From Candidatus Dormiibacterota bacterium (GTDB taxonomy: Bacteria; Methylomirabilota; Methylomirabilia; Rokubacteriales; CSP1-6): a stretch of 46,541 bases of DNA. The notes beneath the pieces are model-generated. The model ran no database searches, had not been told where the DNA came from, and was given only the letters and a program-made list of their open reading frames with translations. This document shows positions 918 through 9,171 of the stretch, one piece after another. Both the position numbers and the translations under genes were made by a program. The stretch is from assembly GCA_035569855.1 (NCBI GenBank), contig DATMMH010000229.1, forward strand, positions 1 to 46,541, read 5' to 3'. The stretch's first letter is position 1; every line of letters starts with the position of its first letter.

Positions 918-957
918 TGGTGAGGCCGGGTTGAACCAGCGACCTTGGGGTCATGAG
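918..957 (-). other. tRNA 3'-half-like remnant (T-arm to anticodon-loop region), not a functional tRNA
   Basis: 931-957 (ttgaaccagcgaccttggggtcatgag) matches 5916-5942 of the tRNA-fMet gene at 25 of 28 aligned positions, in the same orientation. The T-loop is one nt short and the anticodon stem cannot pair. The 5' half would run into the amidohydrolase CDS. Confidence 0.4.
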
Positions 958-972
958 GGGAAGACCGGTGGC

Positions 973-2178
973 CTACCAGGGCGTCGACGTCAGACGGAAG
1001 AAGCGCGCCGCGTTCTCCCACATGAGCTTCTGCGTCGCCCGCTCACCCAGCGACTGGCGCCACGCGATCACGGTCTCGGCGTGATCGGGAAAGATGGTCT
1101 CGGGGTGCGGGTAGTCCGACTCGAACATGAGCACATGATCGCCGAGGAGGTCGATCACCGCTCGGGTCAGCTCGATGCCCTCCGAGAAGTCGATGCCGCA
1201 GAAGATACGCCCCATCTGGGCATACTCGACCGGCGTGTGCTGGAGCGTCGGCGACACGGAGCCGCGGACGTAATCGATCTGCCGCGTGAGGCGCACGAGC
1301 CAGTGAGGCAGCCAGCCGTGGCCACACTCGAGCGTCGCGACCCGGAGCCGCGGATGGCGATCCAGCATGCCGCCCATCAGCATGAACGACAGGAACCGCT
1401 GACCACCCCAGGTCTGGCCCGCGCACCGGCTCATGGCCGGGTTCTCCCAGACGTCGCGATAGCCGGGGAAGTACGGCGTCTCGATGGTGAAGCCGTGATA
1501 CATGATCGGCAGGTCCGCCTCGTTCGCCGCCGCCCAGATCGGCTCCAGGTCGGGATCGTCCACCGGTAGCCCCTCGGGCAACAGGGGCCACACGGCCGCC
1601 ACCCAATCATCCTTGGCGAGCTCCTCGATCGCCCGCGCGCTTGCCGTCGGATCGGTGGCCGGGGCGAGCACCATGCTCTTCAGACGGCGCGGGTCCGCCG
1701 CGCAGTATTCCGCCATGTAGCGGTGATAGGCGTCGACCAGCCCCCGCGTGAGGTGGGGAGCGAGCGCTGGCGCGCCGAACGCCCACGGGCCCGGGATGAT
1801 GAAGTCGATGTCGCGGCCCTCGGTGTCCATGTCTGCGAGTCGGCCCCGCGCATTGTCGTCGGCCACGCGCGCGGTGATGGGTTGTCGCGTGACCATGTGC
1901 GTCCGTGCAGAGAGAAAGCCGCGATCGCCCTCCGGCCCCGTCGGCGCGCTCGGCTTGGCGCCGGCCACGCGCGCGTAGCGAAGCTGCTTGATCGATAGGA
2001 TCGTGGCTTGGCCCTGGTCCTCGGCGTCACCCCGGCCGGGCGAGACCTTCACCTTCCTGAGGTACGGCGCCAGATCGGCCATGCGGTCGCGCAGCGCCGC
2101 GTCGGCGTACCGCAGGAGCACGTCCATCGATGGGTTGACATGCGTGTCGGAGTCGATGACACGGATCCCGTGTTTCAT
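973..2178 (-). CDS. amidohydrolase-2 family metal-dependent hydrolase (ACMSD-like)
   Basis: 401-aa ORF. The N-terminus VIDSDTHVNP and C-terminal FESDYPHPE are typical of the PF04909-type amidohydrolase family. Confidence 0.85.
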   Translation of the reverse strand: MKHGIRVIDSDTHVNPSMDVLLRYADAALRDRMADLAPYLRKVKVSPGRGDAEDQGQATILSIKQLRYARVAGAKPSAPTGPEGDRGFLSARTHMVTRQPITARVADDNARGRLADMDTEGRDIDFIIPGPWAFGAPALAPHLTRGLVDAYHRYMAEYCAADPRRLKSMVLAPATDPTASARAIEELAKDDWVAAVWPLLPEGLPVDDPDLEPIWAAANEADLPIMYHGFTIETPYFPGYRDVWENPAMSRCAGQTWGGQRFLSFMLMGGMLDRHPRLRVATLECGHGWLPHWLVRLTRQIDYVRGSVSPTLQHTPVEYAQMGRIFCGIDFSEGIELTRAVIDLLGDHVLMFESDYPHPETIFPDHAETVIAWRQSLGERATQKLMWENAARFFRLTSTPW

Positions 2179-2210
2179 GGCGCGTCCACGACTCAGCCCC
2201 GGAGCCCTTC

Positions 2211-2369
2211 GGTCATGAGGTCGGCGACGATGCGGGTGGTGCCGCAGGCCATGGTCCAGATGTGCCGTCGGCTCGTGGGGTGGCCGGCGTCCGCGTCTGG
2301 TACCTTATGTCACGGTGACGGGGGCAAGGACAGGGCCGCCTCCGGAGCTCGTTCATGTTGCCTATCCTC
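2211..2369. repeat. Copy 1 of a ~160-bp duplicated segment, bracketed by an 11-bp direct repeat
   Basis: Aligns to 4361-4522 with 4 substitutions and one 3-bp indel. The motif ccccggagccc occurs at 2197-2207 and again at 2369-2379. The minus strand carries a DadA-like C-terminal fragment (WTMACGTTRIVADLMT). Confidence 0.9.
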
Positions 2370-2604
2370 CCCGGAGCCCGGCGTCGGGGCTCCCTGGCGC
2401 GGCGGCGGCGGCGATGTGCTCCCGCTCATCGCGAATGCTCAGCAGCTCGAGATAGTCCTCCTGGAGAAACGAGATGGCGTTGTGCGTCCCCTTGCCGGGA
2501 TGGACCCCGCCGCGGAAGACGTTGAACCCGAGGCGCGCGTAGGTGTCGATGCCGCGCTCGAGGTCGGGCGCGCAGATCATCACATGGTCGACGCGGTTCG
2601 GCAT
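2362..2604 (-). CDS. short VOC/glyoxalase-like domain protein (80 aa, probably a truncated remnant)
   Basis: MPNRVDHVMICAPDLERGIDTYARLGF...GKGTHNAISF resembles the N-terminal module of glyoxalase-like VOC proteins. GGAGGAG lies 5 nt upstream of the ATG at 2604. It is far shorter than typical family members and ends inside repeat copy 1. Confidence 0.5.
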   Translation of the reverse strand: MPNRVDHVMICAPDLERGIDTYARLGFNVFRGGVHPGKGTHNAISFLQEDYLELLSIRDEREHIAAAAAPGSPDAGLRGG

Positions 2605-2700
2605 GCCGGCTCCTCCGCTCCGTGGCCGGGGCAGTCGCACATCGGTGGAGGGCATTATAGTAGACGCGCGGCCCCGCGGCCGGGGACAAGGAGGTGTCAC

Positions 2701-4311
2701 ATGCGACACGCCAAACCGATGCTGAACGGCGTCCGGATTCTGATCGCGATGGCGTGCCTGTTGGGGCCAATGCTCGCGCAGGCTCAGGACAGGCCCCGCT
2801 ATGGAGGCGAGCTGGTCTTCCTAGTGCCCTCCGAGCCACCCTCCTACGACGGTCACCGCGAGGGAACCTTCGGTACCATCCACCCGCTGGCGCCACTGTA
2901 CAATACCCTCCTCCGCATCGACCCCAGCGATCGGACCGGCACGCGGCCGGTGCCGGACCTGGCCGAGTCGTGGACGATCTCGCCCGACGGGCTGACATAT
3001 ACCTTGAAGTTGCGCAACAGCGTCCGCTTCCACGATGGCAGCCCGATGACCTCGCGCGACGTCAAGGCCAGCTACGACAAGATCATCTTCCCGCCGCCCG
3101 GCGTGATCTCGATCCGCAAGGGTGCCTACCGAGCCGTCGAGGCCGTCGAAGCGCCCGACCCGCTCACCGTGCGGTTCCGGCTCAAGTGGCCGGAGGCCTC
3201 CTTCCTGGTCATACTGGCCTCGCCCTATAGCTGGATCTACAAGGCGGACATCCTGGCCAAGGACCCGCGGTGGTACGAGACGAACGTGATGGGCACCGGC
3301 CCGTTCAAGTTCGTCGAGCACGTGAAAGGCTCGCGCTGGGTGGCGAAGAAGAACCCTGACTACTGGGACAAGGGGAAGCCCTATCTCGACGGGTACCGGG
3401 CGCTCTTCATCTCGTCGTCTTCGGCGCAGGTGGCGGCCATCCGCGGCGAGCGCGCCCACATCCAGTTCCGCGGCTTCACTCCGACGGAACGCGATGGCAT
3501 CGTCCAGACGCTCGGCTCGAAGATCACCGTCCAGGAAAGCCCCTGGGACTGCGTCGCGCTCGTGGCGATGAACCACGACAGGAAACCGTTCGACGACAAG
3601 CGCGTTCGCCGTGCGCTGACGCTGGCCCTCGACCGGTACGAGGCCTCGCGCAACCTCTCGCGCATCGCGGTCGTGAAGGAGGTGGCGGGTATCCAGGTGC
3701 CGGGCACGCCCTGGGCGACGCCGCCCGCGGAGCTGGAGAAGCTGGCGGGCTACGGTCGCGATATCGCCGCCAGCCGGGCCGAGGCGCGTGGACTCCTGCG
3801 GGAGGCCGGCGTCCCCGAGGGCTTCGCGTTCACCTTCAAGAACCGCGGGATTCCTCAACCGTACGAGACGGTGGGGATCTGGCTCATCGACCAGTGGCGC
3901 CAGATCGGGCTCACCGTCAAGCAGGAAGTCGTCGAGCCGTCGGCGATGGTGTCCGTCCTCCGCCGGGGCGACTTCGAGGTGGCGATGGACGCACAGTGTG
4001 GCTTCATCGTCGAGCCCGACACCGACGTGCAGAAGTTTCAGTCGGTCGGGCTCTCCGACAACAACTATGGCCGCTACAAGGACGCCGCCCTCGACGAGCT
4101 GTACGTCAAGCAGGCGCGCGCCCTGGACGCCGAGGAGCGCAAGCGGTACCTCCGCGCTTTCGAGAAGCGCCTGCTCGACGAGGAGGTCCACTACATCTAC
4201 ACGCTACAGTGGCACCGTATCGTTCCCCACAGCGCCAAGGTCCGGGGCTGGGCCGTCACGCCGTCGCACTACCTGAACCAGCAGCTCGACACGGTGTGGC
4301 TCGCCGAGTAG
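2701..4311 (+). CDS. ABC transporter substrate-binding protein, family 5 (peptide/nickel/opine type)
   Basis: The ATG at 2701 is preceded by AAGGAGG. There is a signal peptide (ILIAMACLLGPMLAQA), then YGGELVF and a length and pattern typical of DppA/OppA-like SBP_bac_5. The upstream part of the 767-aa track ORF is ignored. Confidence 0.9.
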   Translation: MRHAKPMLNGVRILIAMACLLGPMLAQAQDRPRYGGELVFLVPSEPPSYDGHREGTFGTIHPLAPLYNTLLRIDPSDRTGTRPVPDLAESWTISPDGLTYTLKLRNSVRFHDGSPMTSRDVKASYDKIIFPPPGVISIRKGAYRAVEAVEAPDPLTVRFRLKWPEASFLVILASPYSWIYKADILAKDPRWYETNVMGTGPFKFVEHVKGSRWVAKKNPDYWDKGKPYLDGYRALFISSSSAQVAAIRGERAHIQFRGFTPTERDGIVQTLGSKITVQESPWDCVALVAMNHDRKPFDDKRVRRALTLALDRYEASRNLSRIAVVKEVAGIQVPGTPWATPPAELEKLAGYGRDIAASRAEARGLLREAGVPEGFAFTFKNRGIPQPYETVGIWLIDQWRQIGLTVKQEVVEPSAMVSVLRRGDFEVAMDAQCGFIVEPDTDVQKFQSVGLSDNNYGRYKDAALDELYVKQARALDAEERKRYLRAFEKRLLDEEVHYIYTLQWHRIVPHSAKVRGWAVTPSHYLNQQLDTVWLAE

Positions 4312-4319
4312 CGCGACGC

Positions 4320-4459
4320 CGGAGTGTCAGGCCGTCGATGTCGAGGTCGGGCATGCGGCCGGTCATGAGGTCGGCGACGATGCGGGCGGTGCGGCAGGCC
4401 ATGGTCCAGCTGTGCCGTCGGCTCGTGGGGTGGCCGGCGTCCGCGTCTGGTACCTTATG
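4320..4459 (-). pseudogene. C-terminal remnant of a DadA-like FAD-dependent oxidoreductase
   Basis: The minus frame reads DAGHPTSRRHSWTMACRTARIVADLMTGRMPDLDIDGLTL, which resembles the DadA C-terminus (GHG..GWTMACGSG..L.D...GR.P). An in-frame TGA immediately upstream (4460-4462) leaves no N-terminal body. Confidence 0.45.
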
Positions 4460-4522
4460 TCACGGTGACGGGGGCAAGGACAGGGCCACCGCCTCCGGAG
4501 CGCGTTCATGTTGCCTATCCTC
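4361..4522. repeat. Copy 2 of the ~160-bp duplicated segment (likely the source copy)
   Basis: Near-identical to 2211-2369. Here the DadA-like reading frame continues leftward past the repeat boundary. The right end abuts a truncated SDR fragment. Confidence 0.9.
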
Positions 4523-4602
4523 TGTTGGATCTCGCGTCCTTGGAGTCGGCGTTCATCGTCGGCACCGAGCTGGTGATCGACGGCGGCATGACCCAGCTGT
4601 AG
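4523..4602 (+). pseudogene. C-terminal remnant of a short-chain dehydrogenase/reductase
   Basis: The frame ending at TAG 4600-4602 reads LDLASLESAFIVGTELVIDGGMTQL, the classic SDR C-terminus (..aS..asfitG..l.vDGG). It begins exactly at the repeat boundary and has no N-terminal Rossmann part. Confidence 0.5.
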
Positions 4603-4723
4603 GTCAACCTGAAACGCCAGGTCAACACCCTCCCAGGCTTACGTGGCGAGCCTGCCCATCAGCAGAGGAGTGGCGAAACTTCCGGTGAAGCCAGCACAGA
4701 CCCGCTAGTCGAGAACCGCTCGG

Positions 4724-4963
4724 TTACCCTGTACTTGTGCTAGATATCTGGAAGGTATTCTCAAAGTAGCGGCGGTGGGTTTTCCGTAGCGCTTCCTGGC
4801 TCGCGGCTTCGAGGAGGACGACTTCGTGATCGATCTTCCTGCTGTTCAGATCCAACTCAATCCTGAGCCGATCGTTCTCCGCGACCAAGCGGTCTGAATC
4901 ATTGTAGATCTTGAATTGCTCGATCCGTCCGGGTCGGCGACTGTACTGTATTAGGAAGATCAT
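4724..4963 (-). CDS. hypothetical 79-aa protein, translationally coupled partner of the RelA/SpoT-domain protein
   Basis: Its ATG overlaps the upstream TGA (ATGA at 4960-4963). It shares the AT-richer composition of its neighbour. The sequence is charged and non-membrane (MIFLIQYSRRPGRIEQFKIYNDSDRLVAENDRLRIELDL...HEVVLLEAASQEALRKTHRRYFE), and I recognise no motif. Confidence 0.6.
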   Translation of the reverse strand: MIFLIQYSRRPGRIEQFKIYNDSDRLVAENDRLRIELDLNSRKIDHEVVLLEAASQEALRKTHRRYFENTFQISSTSTG

Positions 4964-5772
4964 GGCTTCTTGCTTACCTCCTGTTGACCCAGAAGATAAA
5001 TCATGTCGAGAAACTCTTTTATAGTCCCTTTCGCCTTACTCGTGTCCCTTCGCACTTCTTTGAACGAACGCTCGAGCTCCGCGCGCTGTTCTCTAACCTT
5101 CTCATACTGTTCAACTGCATCGACGTCCGCTTTGTCTATGCTGGCGCTAATCCTTGACACTTCAGCATCCACTTCCGATACCGCCGCATAGATCAGCGCC
5201 AACTTAGCCTCCAGCTCCTCAAATCTCGCAATCGTATTGGATGCTGAGATGAGCGCTTCCTGAAGTCTTTCCGGGCCTCCCCCGTACTTCACATTCTTAT
5301 CGACGACATCAGATAGCTTCTCTGAAAGCTCCGCCCAGAGGTGTTGGGGCGCACTTCGGACCTGTATTTCAACCGCCCTCCCGCCAACCTTAGGCACGAC
5401 GTGAACGGCCCGATATCCAAAACTCGGGGTCTGCCGACGATCGATGACCGCGGCACCAGGAAAGGCACCGCGCAACGCCGCTACGATCGCGTCTTGTTTC
5501 TGCCGGTCCGGTACGACGACTCTGCACCCCGCGATATCCTGAACCTGTGTAAGTCTGATGCTCTCGCGGTGAAGCTTCTCGATGATCGAGCCCGTTGACT
5601 TAGCCGGTCTTCCGGTCGGCTCAAGACCGATTCGCTCTATGGATTGGATCACGCTCCCATATGCCTCTCCAAAGGAGCGCCGAAACTCGTCAAGTGTCGT
5701 TAGGTCTGAATCAGTAGGGCTCCCTGCTCTGAGCCGATCACCTTGCCGGTCAATCTGCGTGTTGCTCAACAT
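4960..5772 (-). CDS. RelA/SpoT-domain nucleotidyltransferase (small alarmone synthetase / toxSAS-like) with a C-terminal coiled-coil-like extension
   Basis: The synthetase motifs are all present: RPAKSTGSIIEKL, DIAGCRVVV, GYRAVHVV, EIQVRS, LWAELSEKL. The last ~100 aa are rich in Glu, Lys and Ala with heptad-like spacing. AGGGA lies just upstream of the ATG at 5772. Confidence 0.85.
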   Translation of the reverse strand: MLSNTQIDRQGDRLRAGSPTDSDLTTLDEFRRSFGEAYGSVIQSIERIGLEPTGRPAKSTGSIIEKLHRESIRLTQVQDIAGCRVVVPDRQKQDAIVAALRGAFPGAAVIDRRQTPSFGYRAVHVVPKVGGRAVEIQVRSAPQHLWAELSEKLSDVVDKNVKYGGGPERLQEALISASNTIARFEELEAKLALIYAAVSEVDAEVSRISASIDKADVDAVEQYEKVREQRAELERSFKEVRRDTSKAKGTIKEFLDMIYLLGQQEVSKKP

Positions 5773-5850
5773 GACAATCCCTATCTTCGCCTATGGGCCG
5801 CCCACACCCCGGGAGTTACCCGAGACTCTGCCACCAAGAGTGCCTATCGC

Positions 5851-5890
5851 CAAAGACAACAAACCCCCGGGACCTGTTTGATCTCGGGGG
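5851..5890 (-). terminator. intrinsic terminator after tRNA-fMet
   Basis: On the minus strand, CCCCCG...CGGGGG forms a stem (5864-5869 with 5885-5890), followed by TTTGTTGTCTTT. Confidence 0.45.
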
Positions 5891-5897
5891 CTTGTGG

Positions 5898-5974
<77 letters not shown>

Positions 5975-5986
5975 GTGACGAGTCAC

Positions 5987-6015
5987 AATGTAACGGAGAG
6001 ACTGGGCGGAGTCAA
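5987..6015 (-). promoter_or_regulatory. candidate sigma70-type promoter for tRNA-fMet
   Basis: On the minus strand, TTGACT (6015-6010), a 17-nt spacer and TACATT (5992-5987). The -10 element ends 12 nt upstream of the mature tRNA 5' end. Confidence 0.35.
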
Positions 6016-6034
6016 CCGGTCGTCTGCTCCTGAA

Positions 6035-6095
6035 GCCTCTACGACCCCTCGCCTCTACGACCCCTCACCCTGCCCTCTCCCCACCGGCGAGAGGG
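6035..6095. repeat. perfect 16-bp tandem duplication plus REP-like palindrome at the 3' end of the GT2 gene
   Basis: gcctctacgacccctc occurs at 6035-6050 and 6051-6066. The palindrome is ccctctc (6073-6079) with gagaggg (6089-6095). It translates as the C-terminal LSPVGRGQGEGS of the GT2 ORF. Confidence 0.8.
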
Positions 6096-7590
6096 TAGAG
6101 ATGAGGCGGCCGGTCACGCGGTCGGTCTTGGCGGGCTCGTAGCGGCCGGTGCGGGCCAGGCTCCTGAGCACGCGCCAGGCACCCCGCGTCGCGAGCAGCC
6201 AGTAGGTCTGGCAGCGGAAAGTGCCCAGGAACTTCTCCTTGAGGCTCTTGCGGCGCAGGTCCACGCGGCGCGGCAGGTACGGGTGCAGATCCTCGATCAG
6301 GGCCTGGGTCATGATGCCGCCCACCCACACGGTCAGCAGCAGCGAGACCGTCGGGGCGCCCGTCGCCATGTAGAACCAGAAGCGGTGGCCCTCGTGGTGA
6401 TAGGCCAGATACCAGCCGAGCCAGCCGGTGGCCGGATAGACGAGCGCCGCGATGGGCCACTCCACCACTTTGTTGCCCATGTGCCGGACGAGCTGGGCCA
6501 GGTTGAACGCGGTCGGCTCCTCCCGCCAGGCGCGCCAGAGATACGGGATGTCGTTCAGCACGCCCAGGTACCAGCGGGCGTTCTGGCGGATCACCTTCTC
6601 CGAGGTCTCGGGCAGGTCCGTCACCTCCACCATCGGGATGGCCTGGATCAGGATGCCGCGGCGGCCGAGAGCGTAGCCGAGCGTGGAGTCCTCGGTGGCG
6701 CCGGAGGTGGGGAAGCCGCCCACCGCCTGCATCACGTCGAGCCGCACGAACTGGTTGTGGCCGAGGCAGATCTGCGAGCGGCGGAAGCACAGCTCGAAGG
6801 CCGGGCGCACGAGCCAGGCCAGTCGCGGCAAGCGCGCGCTCAGGCGGGCCAGCAGCCGCACCCGCTTGGCCTCGTTGAGCAGCCGCGCGATCGAGACGCG
6901 GATGAAGATCGACGATTGCTGGATCGCGCAGATCTTCCCGCGGATCGGCAGCCGGTCGTAGTTGGCGAGGGAGAGCGGAATGCCCTGGTAGGCCATGCTC
7001 CCCCGCCCGCCCAGCTCCTGATTCGCGATCCAACGATAGGTATCCAGGTCCGGGATCGAATCGGCGTCGCTCACGCCCACGAAGACGCGCCGCGCGTCGG
7101 TCTCCTCGCTCAGGACCTCGCGCAGCACCTCGGGTCGCAGCCCCCAGTTGAGCTGGTGGGCCTTGCGGCCGGAGCCCGGCATCACCACGTGAGAGAGGCG
7201 CTTCTGCTGATAGGGCGGCAGCGTCTCCCGCAGGCGCCGCACCAGCTCCCCGGTGCTCACGCCCATGGCCGGGTGCGGGGCGTGCTCCTCCTCTTCCTTG
7301 GTGATCACCACCACGTGCAGGCGCCCGTGTGGATAGCGGGAGGCGACCAGGGCGCTCACGGTGGTGGCGATGTCCGGCTCCTGGAACGCGGGCACCAGAT
7401 GCAGGAACACCGGCGTGCCCGGCGCGCGCTCGAGCTGCTCCTCGGTGGGGAGCCGGCCCAGGCGCGCGTAGCCCTCTCGCACGAAGCGGGTGGTCACGAG
7501 CATGCCGCGCCAGTCGAGGGCCAGCTTGAAGGAGGCGCGGATGTTGAAGAAGAGGGCGATGAAGAAGAGGAACGGGATGATGTCGGCCAC
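6055..7590 (-). CDS. membrane glycosyltransferase family 2
   Basis: 511 aa with an N-terminal TM segment, VSDADS (DxD-like), TEDSTLGY and QNARW motifs, and C-terminal TM helices. The last ~12 aa are derived from the REP-like element. Confidence 0.8.
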   Translation of the reverse strand: MADIIPFLFFIALFFNIRASFKLALDWRGMLVTTRFVREGYARLGRLPTEEQLERAPGTPVFLHLVPAFQEPDIATTVSALVASRYPHGRLHVVVITKEEEEHAPHPAMGVSTGELVRRLRETLPPYQQKRLSHVVMPGSGRKAHQLNWGLRPEVLREVLSEETDARRVFVGVSDADSIPDLDTYRWIANQELGGRGSMAYQGIPLSLANYDRLPIRGKICAIQQSSIFIRVSIARLLNEAKRVRLLARLSARLPRLAWLVRPAFELCFRRSQICLGHNQFVRLDVMQAVGGFPTSGATEDSTLGYALGRRGILIQAIPMVEVTDLPETSEKVIRQNARWYLGVLNDIPYLWRAWREEPTAFNLAQLVRHMGNKVVEWPIAALVYPATGWLGWYLAYHHEGHRFWFYMATGAPTVSLLLTVWVGGIMTQALIEDLHPYLPRRVDLRRKSLKEKFLGTFRCQTYWLLATRGAWRVLRSLARTGRYEPAKTDRVTGRLISTLSPVGRGQGEGS

Positions 7591-7594
7591 GGGG

Positions 7595-9171
<1,577 letters not shown>

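Follow-up and report, generated by a model that had tools for sequence, protein, structure and literature searches.

The 46,541-nt contig DATMMH010000229.1, the whole of which is referred to below as the window, carries beside an initiator tRNA gene a two-gene cassette that is probably a bicistronic type II toxin–antitoxin system of the PhRel/CapRel kind of toxic small alarmone synthetase (toxSAS), inserted recently on the 3' side of the tRNA gene in a high-GC genome that is probably of Methylomirabilota. The upstream gene, here called A, encodes a RelA/SpoT-type protein of 270 amino acids, and the downstream gene, B, a protein of 79 amino acids. This assignment is carried by the homology of both genes to a validated toxin–antitoxin pair, the intact catalytic residues of A and the fold and topology of the two proteins, and in addition by the obligate linkage of A to B, the signals for coupled expression (AGGAGG and ATGA) and the foreign origin of the segment. 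A system of this type has been described already; B is not a new antitoxin type, nor is the cassette demonstrably a new subfamily, and its unusual feature is that a conserved antitoxin is paired with a hypervariable toxin tail.

Relationship of gene A to toxSAS enzymes

An initial annotation of this DNA had read gene A as a toxSAS-type RelA/SpoT enzyme, and all of the motifs that it quoted are indeed present in the protein (GRPAKSTGSIIEKL, QDIAGCRVVV, GYRAVHVV, EIQVRS and HLWAELSEKL), with the Pfam RelA_SpoT model matching residues 57–149 at 2.2e-12. The catalytic set is intact (R55, K58, D79, R84, Y120, E135, Q137, R139, Q143 and H144), and the residues that are invariant in 42 family members (R55, K58, D79, R84, Y120, E135, R139, Q143 and W146) are all found in A. 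The conserved residues of A align with the R78/R79 region, R116 and Y155 of CapRel.

A tblastn search of phage genomes with A gave gp29 (PhRel) of Mycobacterium phage Phrann as the top match (3e-15), and by BLASTP the two proteins are 27% identical over residues 3–241 of A (1e-21). Because this alignment spans residues 3–241, it takes in most of the helical tail of A, and the earlier opinion that the tail was unlike any known antitoxin type is not supported. An A-family hidden Markov model (HMM) built from 120 members scored gp29 at 98.9 bits, CapRelSJ46 at 52.6 bits and the RelQ core at 51.0 bits. When the A-family profile was compared with the PDB, CapRelSJ46 (2.3e-12, A residues 4–195) and RelQ (2.5e-12, A residues 57–205) were matched; the CapRelSJ46 alignment begins at the N-terminal helix (LSKTQIDRLGDRLR in A versus YSKSQIEKAARKIR in CapRelSJ46), whereas RelQ aligns from residue 57 only. 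The QDIAGCR of A corresponds to QDIGGCR of CapRelSJ46, in which the arginine is CapRel R116. These sequence comparisons support the identification of A as a toxSAS-type RelA/SpoT enzyme, whose family may be PhRel, CapRel or a sister clade, the identities being low.

Two contigs of the same population differ from the window within gene A. In contig L090 a 1-nt insertion at about window position 5494, which may be an assembly error, frameshifts A after approximately residue 93 and leaves B intact. In contig L095 (protein P0001), changes at window positions 5414 and 5744 give Y120F, in the catalytic G-loop tyrosine, and Q10L respectively. The changes in these contigs are confined to the toxin, the sole difference in B being synonymous.

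Relationship of gene B to the antitoxin of PhRel

The stop codon of A and the start codon of B overlap as ATGA, as noted in the initial annotation, and the two genes lie in different reading frames. No Pfam family matched B, the single NCBIfam match was far under the cut-off (E 0.01; 15.9 bits against 200), and searches of the PDB with both the B sequence and its profile returned nothing meaningful. The B-family profile did, however, match gp30 (ATphRel) of phage Phrann, the gene that follows gp29 (MPGFLIEFNRRT...LKRTHSRYF), with 96.3% in hhalign (E 1.9e-9, 34% identity) and 30.2 bits in hmmsearch. Both proteins share an FLIE(F/Y)xRR N-terminus and a C-terminal L(K/R)(R/K)TH(S/R)RYF motif. Pasteurella phage PMP-GADVASU-IND (KY203335.1, 14279–15044) looks to have a second phage-borne toxSAS–antitoxin pair that annotation has missed, in which an unannotated gene resembling A (35% identical to its core) stands directly before one for a ‘hypothetical protein’ resembling B (37% identical).

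The gp29:gp30 pair of Phrann is toxic and neutralizing and forms a complex, and ATphRel and ATcapRel are homologous to one another (PMC7229694) as well as to the C-terminal antitoxin domain of the fused CapRel (PMC9712102). B is of a known antitoxin type because it is homologous to ATphRel, a validated antitoxin that is tied to the CapRel C-terminal domain. The suggestion in the initial annotation of a translationally coupled small neutralizer is therefore upheld, but its view that this partner resembled no known antitoxin and might mark an undescribed subfamily is not, given the homology of B to ATphRel and the match of fused A–B relatives to the PADLOC model PDC-S33 (see below).

The last two helices of B are joined by the sequence HRRYF (residues 63–67), in which H63, R65, Y66 and F67 are invariant in the B family and R64 is nearly so. 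It aligns with THSRYF of gp30 and, by hhalign and hmmsearch, with AYPNYF of CapRelSJ46 (Y352-P-N-Y355-F), in alignments that are non-significant by themselves. At the other end of the protein, more than 800 stand-alone B proteins begin with an invariant M-I-F-L-I. Six B-family proteins (P0248, P0313, P0257, P0264, P0277 and P0299) are longer, at 160–270 amino acids, and have the B domain at the N-terminus with further sequence after it, so that they may be either genuine fusions or read-through gene calls.

Fused relatives and predicted structures

PDC-S33 has 349 positions and treats A and B as consecutive parts of a single protein, A matching positions 8–241 (8.3e-26) and B positions 266–331 (3.3e-4); the lengths of the two proteins, 270 and 79, also sum to 349. 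A search with A and B joined gave approximately 2000 relatives, a few of which cover both halves in one polypeptide; these fused relatives include P0003, P0004, P0005 and P0104 (304–326 amino acids) as well as one at locus L139. The module thus occurs both fused and split, as has been published for CapRel and PhRel (PMC9712102).

The fused relative P0003 was modelled with AlphaFold2 (AF2) from an alignment that combined fused sequences with A-only and B-only ones, with a predicted local distance difference test (pLDDT) score of 92.6 and a predicted template modelling (pTM) score of 0.80. In this model the SYNTH domain (residues 1–160) is followed by two long helices (171–198 and 203–240, both with pLDDT values above 90) and then by a strand-strand-helix-strand unit with two short C-terminal helices, so that the heptad-like tail described in the initial annotation appears as a predicted long helical hairpin. 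The best PDB match of the model by Foldseek is CapRelSJ46 (7ztb) over its full length (E 4.5e-12, approximately 364 columns), with a high root mean square deviation that is expected if the model is closed and the crystal form open. The next matches are RelP and RelQ, at 1e-8 to 1e-7, and the structures of Tas1 (6ox6) and FaRel/FaRel2 also match, at approximately 1e-5 to 1e-4.

The AF2 model of B by itself (pLDDT 83.9) has strands at residues 2–8, 13–20 and 46–52 and helices at 22–41, 56–62 and 64–67, and the order strand-strand-helix-strand-helix-helix is common to this model and the C-terminal part of P0003. A like topology is described for the pseudo-zinc-finger domain (pZFD) of CapRel, whose sheet has three strands, with a helix inserted after the second of them, and which ends in a helical extension that bears YXXY at its hinge (PMC9712102). 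In the predicted topology HRRYF falls in the hinge of B that corresponds to the YXXY hinge of CapRel, and on this ground it may dock in the active site of A.

Linkage, distribution and conservation of the two genes

The distribution of the pair was surveyed from both sides, B in 80 species-representative genomes (Methylomirabilota, Nitrospirota, Planctomycetota, Acidobacteriota, Elusimicrobia, Omnitrophota, Chloroflexi, Firmicutes and Proteobacteria) and A in 80 metagenome loci. A sequence of the A family lies directly upstream of B and on the same strand in 59 of the 80 genomes, most commonly with a 4-nt overlap and otherwise with a 17-nt overlap or a gap of 0–24 nt. By strict HMM coverage A is intact in 39 of these 59 loci, a further nine or so are likely to be intact (divergent tail or contig edge), and about ten have a frameshifted or fragmentary A. 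The remaining 21 B loci lack A and have unrelated contexts. From the side of A, B follows directly in 77 of the 80 metagenome loci, with the 4-nt overlap in 46 of them, one locus is fused and two end at a contig edge, i.e. B is present at all 78 assessable loci. A is never found without B and B is often found without A, and such one-sided dependence is what a toxin and its antitoxin should show.

A clear example of how an orphan antitoxin originates is provided by Ca. Manganitrophus GAC4 (L010:5799-6351), the flanks of which are 85% identical to those of L101:2909-4158 and encode in both a UDP-glucose dehydrogenase, SIS and TP_methylase proteins and, further on, LexA. In L010 the catalytic region of A is deleted, with a short remnant of the A tail and B retained, and the locus is otherwise syntenic with L101. 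Some of the 21 B loci that lack A have RelE/HTH (helix-turn-helix) or HicAB pairs nearby, but the idea that orphan B genes serve an alternative conserved toxin was dropped, as these loci show no recurrent partner. In Ca. Binatia (L007, L011 and L013, positions of approximately 5363–7064) an orphan B gene stands directly after a RelE-like/HTH (Xre) pair and before a gene for a 239-residue protein without a Pfam match.

Averaged over 39 A–B pairs from different species, pairwise identity reaches 66% in the B core and 62% in the SYNTH domain but falls to 16% in the A tail, the length of which varies from 54 to 128 residues.

The chromosomal locus

The AT-richer islet to which the initial annotation had drawn attention was confirmed by calculation. 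The GC content of A plus B is 0.541, the lowest of any stretch in the 46.5-kb window, against 0.699 ± 0.023 in every other 1049-nt segment (z = -6.8), and in A and B the GC content at third codon positions (GC3), 0.59 and 0.68 respectively, lies below the 0.88–0.95 of the flanking genes. The adjacent tRNA-Met(CAT) has, by direct reading of its sequence, the marks of an initiator, namely a C1 × A72 mismatch and a GGG/CCC anticodon stem. By blastn against the window, the relative L105 is 97.8% identical over positions 7875–5895, which include a glycosyltransferase gene and the tRNA gene, and synteny is lost at position 5895, 3 nt beyond the 3' end of the tRNA. In the place of the cassette (L105 positions 1935–3890; window positions below 5895) L105 carries a 651-residue serine recombinase (Resolvase, Recombinase and Zn_ribbon_recom) and unrelated genes. 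Synteny with the window is not regained within the 7.8 kb of L105.

Since L105 carries other genes from position 5895 onwards, the 3' side of the tRNA-fMet gene is a variable, insertion-prone site, i.e. an integration hot spot. The composition and the loss of synteny at the tRNA 3' end together show the two-gene cassette to be a foreign insert of approximately 1.2 kb beside the initiator tRNA gene, as the initial annotation had inferred, and the low-GC cassette is foreign even against the rest of the variable region. In addition, the neighbouring enolase belongs to a protein cluster (at least 90% identity) of 392 members that includes a protein named for a Methylomirabilota metagenome-assembled genome (MAG), whereas the clusters of A and B have three members and one member respectively.

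No integrase was found among the window open reading frames (ORFs) near the cassette, as had been stated before. A terminator had been placed after the tRNA gene, and a strong GC-rich hairpin with a U-rich run does lie there, at the proximal edge of the foreign segment; a strict, simple terminator scan made no call at it. The distal flank had been called a field of gene remnants, which is broadly right in that it contains a weakly matching fragment of a short-chain dehydrogenase/reductase (SDR) gene, a truncated Glyoxalase_3 gene and a duplicated stretch of 160 nt. The features of the locus are collected in Table 1.

Table 1. Features of the A–B cassette and its flanks in window coordinates
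Feature	Position	Strand	Evidence
Gene A, 270 aa	4960–5772	-	ORF
A residues 1–170, putative toxSAS nucleotide pyrophosphokinase (SYNTH) domain	5263–5772	-	Pfam, profiles, HMM
A residues 171–270 and stop codon, predicted long helical coiled-coil-like hairpin tail	4960–5262	-	AF2 of fused homologue; gp29 alignment
AGGAGG, Shine–Dalgarno sequence of B inside the 3' end of A, 13 nt before the B ATG	4977–4982	-	Sequence
ATGA overlap of A stop and B start, translational coupling	4960–4963	-	Sequence
Gene B, 79 aa, putative ATphRel/ATcapRel-type pseudo-zinc-finger-like antitoxin	4724–4963	-	hhalign, hmmsearch, AF2, PADLOC
HRRYF, B residues 63–67	4763–4777	-	Invariant alignment columns
tRNA-fMet, anticodon CAT, insertion landmark	5898–5974	-	ARAGORN; Rfam tRNA 64 bits
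Candidate tRNA-gene promoter, sigma-70-like, TTGACT-17-TACATT	5987–6015	-	Consensus scan (pattern match alone)
Terminator-like GC-rich hairpin, then U-rich run, directly 3' of tRNA	5859–5895	-	-28.6 kcal/mol, z = -4.2
SDR C-terminal fragment, distal-flank remnant outside the module	4465–4602	+	Pfam adh_short_C2 positions 209–236 of 236, E 0.006

The duplicated sequence is a direct repeat of approximately 160 nt (2210–2369 and 4360–4522, 96–97% identical) on either side of an SBP_bac_5 solute-binding-protein gene; the same repeat is found in contigs of the same population, and it suggests a duplication or recombination scar inside the variable region. Furthermore, 27 nt at window positions 931–957, in the interval that separates an HD-GYP-type gene from an amidohydrolase gene some 5 kb away, are 93% identical to the part of tRNA-fMet that runs from the T-arm to the anticodon (5916–5942), and the match extends loosely to approximately 40 nt. 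Neither ARAGORN nor Rfam called a tRNA at 931–957, and the stretch could be a decayed tRNA copy at the far end of a larger island (931–5897) or the remnant of another tRNA.

Proposed mode of action

By analogy with PhRel, CapRel and FaRel2, A most likely uses ATP to pyrophosphorylate uncharged tRNA at its 3'-CCA end, a modification that would block aminoacylation and stop translation. PhRel itself inhibits translation (10.1101/2021.04.30.441581) and binds tRNAi-fMet (PMC11782079). That a toxin of PhRel type should here lie beside an initiator tRNA gene is most likely a coincidence, tRNA genes being insertion sites.

Translation of B would start within the ATGA overlap, served by an AGGAGG of its own, and the product would bind A. 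As in CapRel and FaRel2:ATfaRel2, its HRRYF turn most likely plugs the ATP (pyrophosphate-donor) pocket of A, where it would be flanked by the counterparts of the arginines that coordinate adenine in CapRelSJ46, which in A are most likely R55 and R84; a role of the corresponding motif in neutralization is documented for the YXXY of CapRelSJ46 (PMC9712102, PMC11782079). Release of B, for which the trigger could be a phage protein or a disturbance of the complex, would free A and arrest the cell, and the outcome could be either abortive infection or simple post-segregational addiction.

Comparison with known systems

The closest described system is PhRel:ATphRel of phage Phrann (Dedrick 2017; Jimmy 2020, PMC7229694), which has the same gene order, a toxin followed by an antitoxin of approximately 70–80 amino acids, and a toxin of similar build (292 residues against 270 in A), each consisting of a SYNTH domain and a long helical tail. 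The Phrann genes are prophage-borne and 7 nt apart, whereas the A–B module is chromosomal and its genes overlap by ATGA, and its hosts belong to environmental phyla (Methylomirabilota, Acidobacteriota, Planctomycetota, Nitrospirota, Elusimicrobia and others) that are not named for PhRel in PMC7229694.

CapRelSJ46 (PDB 7ZTB/9ERV; Zhang 2022, PMC9712102) is an anti-phage toxSAS fused to its antitoxin, whereas A and B are split, although both forms occur in the CapRel family and in the A–B family alike. Its N-terminal helix, its QDI(A/G)GCR strand and the tyrosine of its G-loop recur in A, and its antitoxin element agrees with the predicted topology of B in the three-stranded sheet, the helix between strands 2 and 3 and the two C-terminal helices with an aromatic motif, which is YxxY in CapRelSJ46 and HRRYF in B. 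The antitoxin domain of CapRel is its most variable part and senses phage proteins; in the present family, by contrast, the antitoxin is the most conserved part and the toxin hairpin is variable.

PDC-S33, a single-gene phage-defence candidate that was put forward by ‘guilt by embedding’ (10.1101/2024.01.29.577857), is one fused protein and thus differs from the two ORFs of the window; our literature search found no paper text with the name ‘PDC-S33’ and no published functional test of it. Finally, FaRel2:ATfaRel2 (PDB 8PU1/8PU3; PMC11782079) is a bipartite tRNA-targeting toxSAS neutralized in trans, as we propose for A and B. ATfaRel2, a small, well-folded pZFD-like protein whose aromatic xYxxY turn occludes the site of the donor ATP, offers a mechanistic template for the split system; however, the structural match to FaRel2 is much weaker (E ~1e-4), and ATfaRel2, which is circularly permuted relative to the CapRel domain (PMC11782079), has no detected sequence similarity to B.

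Alternative interpretations

Several observations speak against the reading of the cassette as a toxSAS pair of PhRel/CapRel type. The B profile compared directly with CapRelSJ46 by hhalign gives a probability of only 3.7%, so the link between B and the CapRel domain rests on the gp30 bridge and on topology, and although CapRel (9erv) heads the Foldseek matches of B by itself against the PDB, it does so at an insignificant E of 0.47. The plug motif of B is HxxY and not YxxY. According to Kurata et al. (10.1101/2021.04.30.441581), no clear sequence signature separates tRNA-modifying enzymes from those that make (pp)pApp or ppGpp. The mean identity of B remains at 66% across phyla, unlike that of the fast-evolving CapRel sensor domain. 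Moreover, 2.9 million viral contigs contained one distant relative of A and no B, and the plasmids searched contained no B; given this near absence, a defence role is not established.

The module might be a selfish addiction or island-stabilizing cassette that does not sense phage, i.e. a toxin–antitoxin pair that confers no immunity, a possibility of real weight towards which we nevertheless do not lean. Such a role would suit a B that is highly conserved and not diversifying, a family nearly missing from the viral contigs, phage records and plasmids, neighbours that are often other toxin–antitoxin pairs and transposases and not clear defence islands, and the frequent origin of orphan antitoxins by decay. 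It fits less well with the fact that the nearest validated relatives, Phrann gp29/gp30 and CapRelSJ46, act in phage exclusion, and with the match of the fused form to a candidate embedded among known defence systems (10.1101/2024.01.29.577857); the hypervariable toxin tail is, in addition, what would be expected of an arms-race surface, and HEPN, PLD and SLFN-helicase genes occur in some neighbourhoods. A role in defence is favoured by the PDC-S33 match and the nearest relatives, while the scarcity in phages and plasmids and the conserved antitoxin call for caution.

It is unlikely that A is instead a toxSAS that makes (pp)pApp and depletes ATP in the manner of FaRel or Tas1, with B still its antitoxin. 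The SYNTH fold is common to these enzymes, Tas1, FaRel and FaRel2 do match the structural model, and the two chemistries lack a separating signature; however, A is nearest to PhRel and CapRel, both of which are specific translation inhibitors. Antitoxins of the donor-site-blocking pZFD type accompany tRNA-targeting toxSAS enzymes, whereas makers of (pp)pApp are neutralized at the acceptor site by Tis1-like domains or by small alarmone hydrolase (SAH) enzymes (PMC11782079), and no hydrolase or Tis1-like gene is adjacent to the cassette.

We regard it as very improbable that A makes ppGpp as a small alarmone synthetase of the RelQ/RelP kind, in a housekeeping or regulatory role, and that B is a small regulatory partner instead of an antitoxin. 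In a single-sequence search the best solved structure for A was RelQ/YjbM (4e-6), the closest NCBIfam model is GTPPhKinYjbM (GTP diphosphokinase YjbM), and homologues of A are named ‘putative GTP pyrophosphokinase’ in the source databases. Yet the NCBIfam score was 22.5 bits against a cut-off of 320, the family HMM gives PhRel nearly double the score of RelQ, and the N-terminal helix and GCR motif are common to A and CapRel but not RelQ. The cassette is also accessory, judged by the sizes of its protein clusters against that of enolase, and compositionally foreign; close relatives differ at the tRNA-fMet locus, deletions and frameshifts of A recur at loci that keep B, and B is homologous to a validated antitoxin.

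That the two ORFs are a frameshifted pseudogene of a single, PDC-S33/CapRel-like ancestral gene is scarcely credible and was dropped, for although PDC-S33 spans both ORFs and fused relatives exist, the split form is the rule (77 loci against one), B has its own AGGAGG and more than 800 stand-alone homologues with a conserved start, the ATGA overlap recurs across phyla and the Phrann pair is split too.

Implications for the toxSAS family

We therefore return to the reading of the cassette as a split PhRel/CapRel-type pair. The toxSAS enzymes are a studied model of how bacterial translation is shut off on infection, and the present findings extend the PhRel/CapRel type to a large and mostly uncultured set of soil and groundwater phyla, in a family of approximately 2000 A-type and 800–1100 B-type protein clusters. 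In these environmental phyla it is the split form that dominates. In annotation of the window, the labels ‘hypothetical’ and ‘GTP pyrophosphokinase’ of the two genes can give way to those of a toxSAS toxin and its antitoxin at a variable locus linked to a tRNA gene.

The pattern of conservation, which is opposite to that of CapRel, raises the question of where the trigger specificity resides in split toxSAS systems. One speculative answer, which we put forward with considerable doubt, is that the large environmental clade forms a toxSAS subfamily of its own in which the roles are redistributed, B acting as an interchangeable plug that hardly varies and the hypervariable hairpin of the toxin providing the surface for specificity or sensing, opposite to the arrangement in CapRel. 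If this were true, orphan B genes would be more than debris and might act as stand-alone immunity genes that cross-neutralize incoming A-type toxins, B being so conserved.

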